DNA from: Schmidtea polychroa
Taxonomy: Eukaryota
Length of the DNA stretch: 64,000 nt
Reading direction: 5' to 3'
NCBI GenBank assembly: GCA_044892525.1
Contig: CM097885.1
Coordinates: 145,452,001 to 145,516,000 of the forward strand
Positions 1-20,287 of the stretch are shown piece by piece. The position numbers were made by a program, and so were the translations under genes. The notes under the pieces are model-generated. The model searched no databases. It was not told where the DNA came from and saw only the letters and a program-made list of their open reading frames with translations. Position 1 is the stretch's first letter; every line of letters starts with the position of its first letter.

Positions 1-3000
1 TCATAACCAGTTGCGTTATATTTTGGCATTCGTTTTTTATATTGACCAATGACGTTATACACCAAATATGCTAATCCCACTAAATATCGATTTTGGTCTT
101 CTGATCTGCTTAACAGATGTTCCACAATTAATCTGAGTTCCACGGGATCCTTTAACGTTAATCGAATTTTATTATCCATGATTTTCATTATTATCGGTTT
201 CAATACCGCCCATAATTGTTTGGCTTCGGTCGGGATATTATCCTTCCTCATTACTCTTTTCACATCTGGATTTGCTAACGCTAACATGTTAGCTAATAAG
301 TCGTTTATCCATCGTGTCCCTTGTTCCCGGACGTTTGTTTTCACTTTGACTTGTTTTACTAGTGCGCTTAGTTTATCCATTTTAGTTTTTATCTGTTCCA
401 TTTGTGCTTGAATTTTGGATTTTGGTTCCACCTCTGCTTTATCTGTTTTTGGTCTTCCTCTTGTTCGTCGATCCATAGCCGTTCCGGTTTCTTTCCGTTT
501 TGGCGGATTGTAAGTTGTATCTTTTGACGTGGTCGCTCCTGGATCTACTCTCCAGTTACTCCATTCATCGGTTGTGGTTACATCTTTATTGGCACTTCCT
601 CCCACATTATCTAAATCCGTCTCGGCTTCTGTCGTTTCCACTGGTTGTCTTTGCGCACATCCAAATCCATCTAGATCATCAGTTGTTGGTTCACCTTCGT
701 CGATAAATAGGTCTCCCGATTGCGATGCTCTCATAATCTCGCCTGCTTCGACTATCTCCTGTAGTTCATCTAGTATTTCGTCTTCTCCCGTTGTTTCGAT
801 CGTTACTTCACAAACCGCATTTGGAACTTCTGGTGTGTCCAAACTTCCTGGTTGTTGAGTGGATGATTTTTGCTTTATCTCTCTTCTCCTTAATTCTCTA
901 CCTGCAATTTTACTCACAGTTAATCTGTTCACAATTTCTCCTTGGAGTGGTGTCACACCAATTTCAATATCGTCGTCTAATGATCGTCCCTCGTGTTGTA
1001 AGTGGAATGGGAGTTCATAAGGTATTCTCTTTTTAACTTCCCTGACCTTGGCTGTTGTGTAGAATTCCTTTTCCATTGGTTCAAAATCTGGCAAGAATAT
1101 TTTTAGTTGATATTTCTCGGGTGAGTTTTCGGCCCACTCTTGTTGTTTCCATTTCCGGATGATTTCACCAAATTGTTCAGGGTACCATACGTATACCCGT
1201 CGATATTCTTCGATCGCTTTAACGATTTTTCGTAGGTTTTGAATCCTTTTGCATGATTCGGCTATCCATTTTGCTAGTTCTACTACCGCTCGTCGACGAT
1301 TTTTCGCACCGTTTTGTAATATCTCCATCAATTCCTTACATTTTTGTGCTTCCAACAATGTTGCTGCTTCCTCCTCATCTGCGTCGGCGTCTATTGGTAG
1401 ATGTCCTGAATCAGGCACCCTTCTCCTCATCATACAGATTCTCGGTTGATTTTCTGGTATGTTCAGTCGTTGGTTCATTTCTTGTTCTGTTTCAACTTCT
1501 ACTCTGATCTGGATCGCATTGTCTTTCACAAATATTGATTGTTCATTCTCAATGTAATTTAGACGTATTAATTTAGACGTCCCAGAAGCGATATATTCTA
1601 ATGTTGTTGGTCGTTGGTAGCAGGTGCTTCTTGGGTCTGGTTTCATTGTTTCTTTATGTACGTTAAGGCTATCTTTCAGTGGTTCGATCGCTATCGTTAC
1701 CTTTCTGCTAAACGGCCATGGTACCTTATCGTCATAATTCCCTTTGCAGATGATGAAGAATGCCGACACATAACTTCCTTTTCCTACCCCATCTCCGTTC
1801 GGGTATATTCGCAATTTCATCTTGTACTCACCTAATCCTGAGTAGACCGGTGGACTTACTAATCGTGTGATTTTCTCTTCCCTTGCTGATTTTATCTTTT
1901 CCATCCAATTCTCAATTTTCCACGTGAATGGTGCTAACCTTACCGGTTCTCGTATCTCCTCATCTTCTCCTGATTGTAACTCATTTTGGAATTCTTGTGG
2001 TAATATATCCTGGTAAGCATCGATTGGTTTCTCTCTTACCCATACTGCTGCGATCTCTTCGGGTATATTATCTATCCAATTTGGTTCCAACTTTTGCTGC
2101 TCCCAATCCCATCGAGCTTCACTTTCGATCCACACTTTTTTCCATGGTATCAGTTTGCAATCTTCGTCATTGAAGGCTGCTAGTTTTAGTTTATCATCCT
2201 TTAGCCAATGGTTATAAATATCTATTATTCGATCCATCTTTGCTCTCATCCCCCATTGGAATCTTTTAATTTGTTGCTCTGTTTTGGTGGCGTTTTTGTG
2301 TCCACCCGATGGTTCATCCATCGCGATTATATTGATGACGGCTCCATCTTCCCAGATTCCTAGTTCGTAAATTACAGTTCGGTCTCCTCTTTCTAACATG
2401 TGCCGGTTGTACATTATTATCACATCTTCGATCATTCCATCCTCACTATTTTCTCGAGCTTTTTGGATGATTTCTCGATCTATGATTTGCACTAACTCGT
2501 CAACTTCGCAATCGGGATTAACTTCTATTATTTGTTTCTCTTCATTTGGTAACTTCACCTTTATTTTTATCGTTTCTTGTTCGCATTTTGTTCTCTCGTA
2601 TTCTCCGTATTTTGATATCAACTCTGTTGCTCGTTTATCTTCGAATCTCATAATTTCCGTGTCTCGTACGTCTTTGACAAATTGTTTCATTAGTTGTGGC
2701 CATCTTTCTCTGAGTCTATTAATATATTTTCTTGCCTGATCGATAGCTTGTTTGACCAAGATTATTTGGTTTTCTTTCATTATTTTTCGTTCGATCTTTT
2801 CCAATTCTGGCTCCACTTCATTGTTAAACACTTGTTGGATTTTCTGGAACATTTCTGCCACTGATTCGTCGTCTCTGGTTTTCTCTAAGGTTAAGATGTT
2901 AGTTTCGTTTGGCCATATCATCGCATCTACCAAATGTATGCCTATTTTAACTTTGTAACCATCGACATATAATTGTTTATTTTTATGGCTCGTTCCCATT

Positions 3001-19300: not shown

Positions 19301-20287
19301 ACAATGATATCAATGGACGTAGTTGGTCCATTACCCGAATCGAATAAAGGAAATGTTTATATTTTAGTAATTACGGACTTTCTCACGAAATTCCCGGAAG
19401 CATTCGCTATGCCAGATCAAAAAGCCAAAACAATTGCAAAGATACTGGTAGAAGAAATATGTTGCCGTTACGGAACCCCAAAGCAAATATTAACTGATCA
19501 AGGAACAAATTTTATGAGTGAAATAATGAGTGAAGTAACGAACTATTTCAAAATAGCAAAATTAAGAACATCTCCATATCACCCCCAAACCAATGGGATG
19601 ACGGAAAGATTTAATGGAACACTTATACAAATGTTGTCAAACTACGTCGATCGTCACCAACGAGATTGGGATGAATACATAAACCTATGTCTTATGGCTT
19701 ACAGAATGTCAATTCATGCATCAACGAAAATGAGCCCATTTAAATTAATGTACGGAAGAGAATGTAACATGCCAATGGACCTGGAATACCAACCACCGAT
19801 ATCGCAATACATGGAGATAGACGATTATGTTACGAAATTCAAGGAAAGAATGCAAGAAATTTGGGAAACTGCGGGATTAAATATCAAGTTCTACCAGGAA
19901 AGTTATAAAGATTTACACGATCGAAAGAAAAACGTGAAGCAACACACTTTTCAAACAGGTGATTGGGTAATGATAGAAACACCAGAACTGATTCCAGGAA
20001 CCACAAAAAAGTTACAACGGAATGGAAAAGGGCCATATGAGATGTTATTTGTAGGCGAAACTAATGTAAGAGTGAAATTGGTAAATAACTCATTCACCAG
20101 GCCAATATACGTAAATGTGGCACGATGCAAATCAATTCCAAAAACGGTCACCAGTCAACCAGAAGGCCGTACGTTAACTACACGTTGGCAAACTTACAGA
20201 ATAAACATGATGCAACAACTTGCAGAACCCATCACGGGACGGTTGGGCATACAACCATCGGAAGCGGAAAAGATTGTAAAGAGGTAA
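16358..20287 (+). pseudogene. pol: Pol: aspartic protease, RT, RNase H, integrase in one frame with two premature stops
   Basis: AMIDTGANVS; PWQFPVVMV, LCIDYRKLN, YIDD; LATDASG; HHCC and DDE (ISMDVVGP, TDQGTNF, NGMTERFN); GPY motif. Stops at 17606-17608 and 17855-17857 (GYW*I, expected GYWQI). Confidence 0.95.

Follow-up and report, generated by a model that had tools for sequence, protein, structure and literature searches.

A five-residue word close to R-I-N-M-M recurs at module boundaries in the polyproteins of two giant retrotransposons, here called elements A and B, within a 64,000-nucleotide stretch of the Schmidtea polychroa genome (GenBank assembly GCA_044892525.1, contig CM097885.1, positions 145,452,001 to 145,516,000 of the forward strand; hereafter the window, in whose own numbering all coordinates are given). 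Judged from the sequences, it is a real, lineage-specific and probably functional cleavage word in an element of a known kind, and it is quite likely to be what the element's own aspartic protease (PR) recognises. An original prediction made from this DNA had taken the motifs to be likely protease sites at the boundaries of Gag, PR, the reverse transcriptase (RT) and the integrase (IN), which would also release the cargo domains as separate proteins. That they are likely protease sites is supported by the ranking of motif copies in held-out tests, by the length and register that the motifs give the protease, by retention in relatives and by the fit of positions P2 and P2′ to a known protease preference. 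The remainder holds in part: the held-out ranks bear out the boundaries of Gag, PR, RNase H (RH) and IN, whereas the RT N-terminus is unmarked, and the cargo would leave as multi-domain blocks, with the MATH, ubiquitin-like/Bcl-2-like and envelope (Env) regions not singly bounded.

The two elements are related and point away from each other within the window. Element A is an open frame of 1,822 codons (3-5468, minus strand) that leaves the window and is homologous to B; it comprises an acidic leader, a Gag capsid, three CCHC knuckles and cargo with MATH, ubiquitin-like and Bcl-2-like regions, of which Pfam recognised the zinc knuckles and the MATH domain (residues 1181-1325; 1494-1928, minus; MATH_2, E 1.1e-26). 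Element B, on the plus strand at about 10873-27150, is a decayed copy with frame breaks near 12030, 13486, 16340, 17607, 17856 and 20290. Its Pfam matches run in the order Gag, weak ubiquitin-like, weak Bcl-2-like, Monjiviricetes-type fusion glycoprotein, aspartic protease, RT, RNase H, integrase and ankyrin. By BLAST, A and B are about 45% identical both in Gag and in the block preceding Bcl-2. The assignment to Ty3/Gypsy follows the order PR-RT-RH-IN in B and its best solved-structure match, Ty3 Gag-Pol (7Q5B, E 2.5e-91). On their sequences both are Burro-like giant Ty3/Gypsy retrotransposons, and we class them as Burro-like rather than as Burro1 because no BIR domain, the domain of inhibitors of apoptosis (IAP), was found: there was no Pfam match in the 17 frames scanned and no BIR-like Cys/His pattern in the six frames of 1-30000, both elements being incomplete in the window.

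The domain order of the planarian Burro/GYPSM1 elements, which are giant Gypsy-like long terminal repeat (LTR) retrotransposons, has been published (PMC6431247, citing Grohme et al. 2018 and Jurka 2007). As described in the part of that source consulted, they share with A and B a Gag with two or three CCHC knuckles, a MATH domain in the polyprotein or an accessory frame, and an Env between Bcl-2 and PR, followed by PR-RT-RH-IN and ankyrin repeats. Their ubiquitin/SUMO-like and Bcl-2-like regions before Env have candidate counterparts here, with Pfam matches below the cut-off. The likeness is one of domain order, B being decayed and A cut off by the window, and the same part of PMC6431247 names no cleavage sites or processing scheme. 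No map of Burro cleavage sites was found in the literature searched, including the consulted parts of PMC6952103, PMC13524379 and PMC11410931; information on processing may be contained in Grohme et al. 2018, in Lee et al. 2026 (Dev Cell) or in the supplements to these papers. Already known are the class of element and the self-cleavage of retroelement polyproteins; the predicted cleavage word is near-fixed and specific to this lineage.

Motif copies and their enrichment

Fourteen in-frame copies of [RQKHT]-[IVM]-[NCAH]-x-[ML] occur across elements A and B. Numbering the word from P3 to P2′, P3 is Arg in seven copies, Gln in four and Lys, His and Thr in one each; P2 is Ile in 11, Met in two and Val in one; P1 is Asn in eight, Cys in three, Ala in two and His in one; P1′ is Met in six, Ala in three, Leu in two and Ile, Val and Lys in one each; and P2′ is Met in 13 and Leu in the last. 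P2 (Ile/Val/Met) and P2′ (Met/Leu) are therefore hydrophobic in 14/14 copies, and none of the 14 lies within a Pfam domain.

The six copies in A, all on the minus strand, begin with QVAAMT (site 1, 4554-4571), which stands just past the capsid domain and is aligned by BLAST to QMNIMQ at the capsid end of B (B site 1; 11479-11496, plus). QINLMQ (site 2, 4110-4127) follows 20 residues past the last zinc knuckle, RINMMQ (site 3, 4035-4052) ends a 25-residue spacer, and RINMMR (site 4, 3885-3902), at the end of a 50-residue piece, is aligned to RINMMK of B (B site 4; 12165-12182, plus). KINMLR (site 5, 3477-3494) starts a 684-residue block that ends in MATH, and RICMMR (site 6, 1425-1442) lies 20 residues past MATH. 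The remaining copies in B, all on the plus strand, are QMNVMQ past the zinc knuckles (site 2, 11947-11964); HIHAMR (12708-12725), which precedes the block shared with A (ubiquitin-like, then Bcl-2-like) and is paired with A site 6 by position and not by BLAST alignment; TIAAMN before the protease (16712-16729) and RICKMN after it (17084-17101), the latter pairing with RICMLK in the relative P0128; RICLMV in the RNase H/integrase linker (18842-18859); and RINMMQ after integrase and before the ankyrin region (20198-20215). The B counterpart of A site 3 (12025-12044, plus) is split by a frame break and is excluded from the 14.

The original prediction had listed 13 motif strings, and 12 are present at the places it gave. 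The capsid-end pair QVAAMT/QMNIMQ was absent from its list, and its KMNAI after PR (17093-17107), although present, is three residues out of register with the motif, RICKMN. The thirteenth string, RIYVMMR, occurs in none of the six frames and was rejected; the B frame is broken at about 12030, and the string had been stitched across the break.

A strict form of the pattern matched 11 times in the 11 element frames, where 2,000 shuffles averaged 0.46 matches and never exceeded 4; the comparison is inflated because the pattern was fitted to these same motifs. Held-out tests are fairer; for these a profile was built either from the six cargo-region copies or from the eight classical copies and scanned over the remaining sequence windows. 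With the cargo profile, the sites after IN, after nucleocapsid (NC), after PR and between RH and IN ranked 1, 3, 4 and 5 of 6,782 windows, rank 2 being the broken site of B, and the remaining classical copies ranked 16, 17, 43 and 132. With the classical profile, the cargo copies ranked 1, 3, 4, 5, 32 and 34 of 6,780, with non-sites at ranks 2 and 6. The flanks of the motif are also more polar than average (0.69 versus 0.62, p 0.013).

Retention in relatives and lineage specificity

Retention was followed in 21 Gag relatives with 45-65% best-segment identity, a set that leaves out P0143 (an exact-fragment match) and P0121. It can be seen that the capsid-end site is kept in 21/21, and that the post-NC site is kept as QIN[VM/VI] in 13 of the 14 relatives that reach the last knuckle. 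P0121, which is 49% identical over 865 residues and is the single match to a profile-free search with A residues 1337-1822, carries HINMLR at A site 5 and RISVLE at A site 6, the two cargo sites that it covers. Taken together, the sites are retained at 45-57% protein identity. Over 10 paired sites, 32/50 residues are identical in the motif and 51/200 in the flanks, a comparison that is anchored on the motif and leans upward. At the counterpart of A site 3 (4035-4052) in P0122-P0139, most gene models end or turn to unrelated sequence after RIN, and 14/15 lack the full motif; these are probably gene-model junctions, and the break may be a predicted or real splice donor yielding a Gag-only message.

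In sequencing runs of the organism the A family is plentiful and diverse (4,222, 1,082, 975 and 1,535 contigs). Among the 40 variants listed of 360 variant places in genomic copies, 27 are silent, and the two that fall within motifs are both silent, numbers too small to test the motif codons for selection. In one diverged genomic copy 72 bases spanning site 3 are replaced by other letters. A search for long homologues (3,190-5,000 residues) of the A Gag region gave 0/888 candidates, and no related loci were found in viral contigs; the 12 found in metagenome contigs were distant or short and were not used.

Outside this lineage the strict motif is rare, with 4 matches in 55,290 residues of 20 more distant polyproteins that carry Env in frame, two of these being the strand before the catalytic Asp, and 7 matches in 179,389 residues of another 100 proteins. 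A looser form is found 19-40 residues before the catalytic Asp in the 20 Env-in-frame polyproteins in 15/36 cases, against 9/60 random windows (Fisher p 0.007). On the sequences compared, the type of site is general and its near-fixed spelling is peculiar to this lineage. KVNAL/RINAL matches in relatives were rejected as sites, being the strand that precedes the catalytic DTG. We also noted that eight proteins from public assemblies (P0005, P0007, P0010, P0011, P0013, P0017, P0020 and P0022) belong to a wider Gypsy clade with Env in frame with Pol, and that their chains have two or three protease-like DTG/DSG domains each, one of them after integrase and often preceded by a site-like word.

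Predicted cleavage and alternative explanations

Ty3 cleavage sites are varied in sequence. The Ty3 protease cuts capsid, a short spacer and NC from Gag and frees PR, RT and IN, self-processing being standard in Ty3/Gypsy according to the part of PMC4974528 consulted. The Ty3 RT crystal construct ends ...SRAVY and is followed by T-I in the polyprotein (PDB 4OL8, 7Q5B), giving hydrophobic P2 and P2′ as here; Ty3 differs in that its 1,547-residue chain has no cargo, whereas here a near-fixed word returns throughout non-viral cargo and is lacking before RT. ASPRV1 is a protease from a domesticated host gene whose origin is Ty3/Gypsy-like. It favours hydrophobic residues at P2 and P2′ and a mostly polar P1; in IVFAN↓SMGKG, one of its sites, P1 is Asn and P2′ is Met, although its sites are diverse and, in the part of PMC11402058 that describes them, are said to have no consensus. 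Foamy virus sites are said to resemble those of yeast retrotransposons and the PR-RT-RH border is left uncut, but only two efficient cuts are made, Env is a separate gene and the polyprotein has no cargo blocks (PMC3185560 and PMC7828637, in the parts consulted). We favour the element's own protease because Ty3/Gypsy-derived proteases are known to prefer a hydrophobic P2 and P2′ together with a P1 that is small and polar, and the ASPRV1 preference suggests, by analogy, N↓M as the likely bond.

The protease of B fits this proposal in its dimensions. Motif copies on both sides delimit an implied mature enzyme of 124 residues with the sequence DTGA (16721-17092, plus; Pfam RVP, E 6.4e-10) and its catalytic Asp at position 26. 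In HIV-1 PR the catalytic Asp is at position 25. A solved-structure search with the PR frame gave no match. In A the implied cuts fall after residues 302, 450, 475, 525, 661 and 1345, leaving pieces of 148, 25, 50, 136, 684 and >477 residues, and the implied integrase of B has 452 residues.

We infer the cutting, the enzyme and the exact bond from these features, and the scheme would run as follows. A protease dimer would most likely cut between the third and fourth residues, R-I-N↓M-M. On the Gag side it would yield capsid, nucleocapsid (148 residues), two short spacers (25 and 50) and a 136-residue piece, then a 684-residue block ending in MATH and a ubiquitin-like plus Bcl-2-like block running into Env. 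On the Pol side the products would be the 124-residue protease, the domain that follows it joined to RT-RH, the 452-residue integrase and an ankyrin protein. Env would be freed by host signal peptidase and not by PR, its own leader taking it into the secretory path. We propose that a preference which is loose across the family may have been tightened in this lineage to a near-fixed word, since one enzyme must cut a chain of 5,000 residues while sparing many cargo domains.

Several boundaries carry no site. Nothing motif-like scores well within the 684-residue piece of A, so that MATH, at its C-terminal end, is not divided from the 500 residues that precede it; the piece also holds unannotated and ubiquitin-like regions, the latter a lead only. 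The ubiquitin-like and Bcl-2-like regions remain together in one implied piece. B has no motif between the Bcl-2-like block and Env or within Env, where about 0.07 would be expected by chance, so this absence says little. Nor does a motif separate the post-PR domain from RT, either in B or among the 19 relatives viewed, and these two may stay joined, in analogy to the PR-RT-RH of foamy viruses (PMC7828637, in part). Since sites are missing before MATH, between Bcl-2 and Env and between the post-PR domain and RT, the predicted cuts would free large multi-domain blocks and not each cargo domain singly; the TRAF-like cargo in B has a frame to itself, for which no cut is required. B also lacks MATH and the region of A residues 662-1020 in its chain, and as the limits of the missing part are not at motifs, the cargo was not acquired as motif-bounded cassettes. 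An AlphaFold model of A residues 430-1629 from a three-row alignment was uninformative (mean pLDDT, the per-residue confidence score, 35.6) and was not used for boundaries.

Other explanations of the motif were weighed against cleavage by the element's protease. The word might be a short structural or binding element that is left uncut, such as a beta-strand cap where modules begin or a word to which a partner docks; it has a short hydrophobic core in polar flanks like many linear binding motifs, and residues just after the N-terminal cut of a protease belong to the dimer sheet, for the folding of which the copy before PR could be kept. However, the modules that it stands before are unrelated (nucleocapsid, spacers, integrase, ankyrin region), it comes after others, and it brackets PR at the expected size, and we regard this explanation as improbable. 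Cutting of the sites by a host protease would suit a cargo tied to apoptosis and ubiquitin signalling, where host proteases act, and the protease of A lies outside the window. Caspases take Asp at P1. No copy has Asp at P1 or a dibasic furin pattern, while the word both fits the preference of Ty3/Gypsy-derived proteases and brackets PR itself, which makes a host enzyme slightly less probable still.

We give the lowest probability, equally, to two further origins of the word. If short internal duplications had left the copies behind, or if linkers of low complexity, rich in Gln, Asn and Arg, had given rise to them as a by-product, the 25- and 50-residue spacing of A sites 2-4 in a Gln-rich stretch would be accounted for. 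DNA flanking non-orthologous sites, however, shows a mean likeness of 0.29 against a background mean of 0.31 (99th percentile 0.45), and the silent positions of the motif codons differ between copies, which excludes recent duplication, argues that the motif is kept at the protein level and largely refutes this account; composition-keeping shuffles give 0.46 matches, and copies stand up to 8 kb apart, the Pol boundaries included. Alternatively, Met-Met could mark internal translation starts or the starts of sub-genomic messages, from which cargo would be made without proteolysis. Met is indeed present in 14/14 window copies, and the frequent switch of the relatives' gene models after RIN at site 3 could be a real splice point; yet aligned sites without Met exist (RISVL in P0121, QVAVL in most Gag relatives, and QINVI), and initiation does not explain why the residues before Met are kept with differing codons.

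A number of points weigh against cleavage by the element's protease. According to the part of PMC3185560 consulted, proteases of the retroviral type lack a consensus sequence, so a near-fixed word is atypical. Inspection by eye of B and of 19 relatives showed no motif where the RT N-terminus is expected, and one site, RICKM, has Lys at P1′. The RH/IN copy stands 15 residues past a conserved ...MSR, about 12 residues downstream of the position aligned to the end of Ty3 RT, whose crystal chain ends 3 residues past ...MSR; the linkers of 120 other Gypsy proteins are variable in this regard. In RH/IN linkers the looser form was not significant against random windows, either in the clade (5/20, p 0.32) or in other Gypsy proteins (22/92, p 0.22), 5 proteins having no usable linker. 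Two non-sites scored among the top windows, QINQMQ (frame at 22562) and DIALMN (inside the TRAF MATH domain), and the held-out test is not fully blind, as its training sets, selected by eye, have one identical hexamer (RINMMQ) in common. Being automated gene models that are mutually close, the 21 Gag relatives amount to about one lineage, and at site 3 the relatives have RIN in 15 instances with the full motif in 1/15, the rest stopping or diverging after RIN.

Burro-type elements carry anti-apoptotic and signalling domains within a chain of about 5,000 residues, and the consulted part of PMC13465017 cites a report that one such element supports stem-cell survival, together with a 2026 study of the Burro1 IAP region. 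If true, the motif map names the peptides, the sizes of the products and the real units, which are blocks and not single domains, and a retroviral-type protease with a near-fixed recognition word would be unusual in a family described as having no consensus (PMC3185560, in part). A bolder extension, which we hold to be doubtful, is that the protease of this lineage, in contrast to others of the retroviral type, has become strict and sequence-reading and also acts outside the particle, freeing as host-control proteins the TRAF-like block that ends in MATH, the Bcl-2-like block that the Env leader leaves on the membrane, and the ankyrin protein. These would have stable N-termini, often starting with Met; the timing of the protease would switch on an anti-death programme, and host proteins with the same word could be cut.

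Further features of the elements and of the window

The Gag frame of B, with capsid and zinc knuckles, lies at 10873-12039 (plus; Retrotrans_gag, E 2.5e-11, and zf-CCHC). A repeat at 10253-10959 adjoins it where homology to A starts, and recurs without Gag at 60103-60810 (86%) and 43161-43760; the 5′ end of B therefore looks to have been replaced by another element. The open frame of A lacks any Met ahead of residue 217 (4818-5468, minus), yet relatives can be matched over its first 200 residues.

The Bcl-2-like region and Env of B share one motif-free frame (13488-16358, plus), which a frame break separates from PR; in related intact polyproteins Env and Pol form a single chain. The Bcl-2-like region is weak (14028-14231, plus; E 0.0014, below the cut-off), and the best stretch of the Env-like fusion glycoprotein is at 15168-16187 (plus; Monjiviricetes_fusion, E 1e-72). 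A hydropathy scan found one segment above threshold in this frame, a C-terminal transmembrane segment at residues 863-899. Between Env and the Bcl-2-like region there is a stretch of moderate hydrophobicity (14350-14420, plus), below the threshold used, which, judged by eye, could be both the Env leader and a membrane anchor for Bcl-2. The ubiquitin-like region is below the Pfam cut-off (E 0.012), and ubiquitin-like clusters matched in the atlas at 0.77-0.79 provide a lead only.

A conserved domain between PR and RT had no Pfam or PDB match and hit only unnamed clusters in the atlas; the label dUTPase-like comes from PMC6431247, in part. The frame with part of RT, RNase H and integrase is at 17858-20287 (plus; Pfam and the 7Q5B match above). 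The ankyrin-repeat frame (20089-22428, plus; Ank_2, E 3.7e-22) is motif-free and in a different frame from integrase. After it, at 22562-27147 (plus), come a separate TRAF-like frame running from RING to MATH (22986-24422, plus; Pfam), which has no strict motif, and several coiled-coil-like frames with no Pfam labels, apparently accessory genes.

Elsewhere in the window, 29824-40024 is a Polinton/Maverick-like remnant with 1.1-kb terminal inverted repeats that are 98% alike, between which there is a match to protein-primed DNA polymerase B (E 1.9e-8) and a weak one to endonuclease VII. Another repeat family is represented by two 169-codon frames that are 61% identical (9441-9950, and 55141-55650, minus), with a weak echo at 40186-40941. 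Broken frames at 50462-52024 (plus) bear some likeness to the C-terminal part of non-LTR retrotransposons that carry a restriction-like endonuclease.

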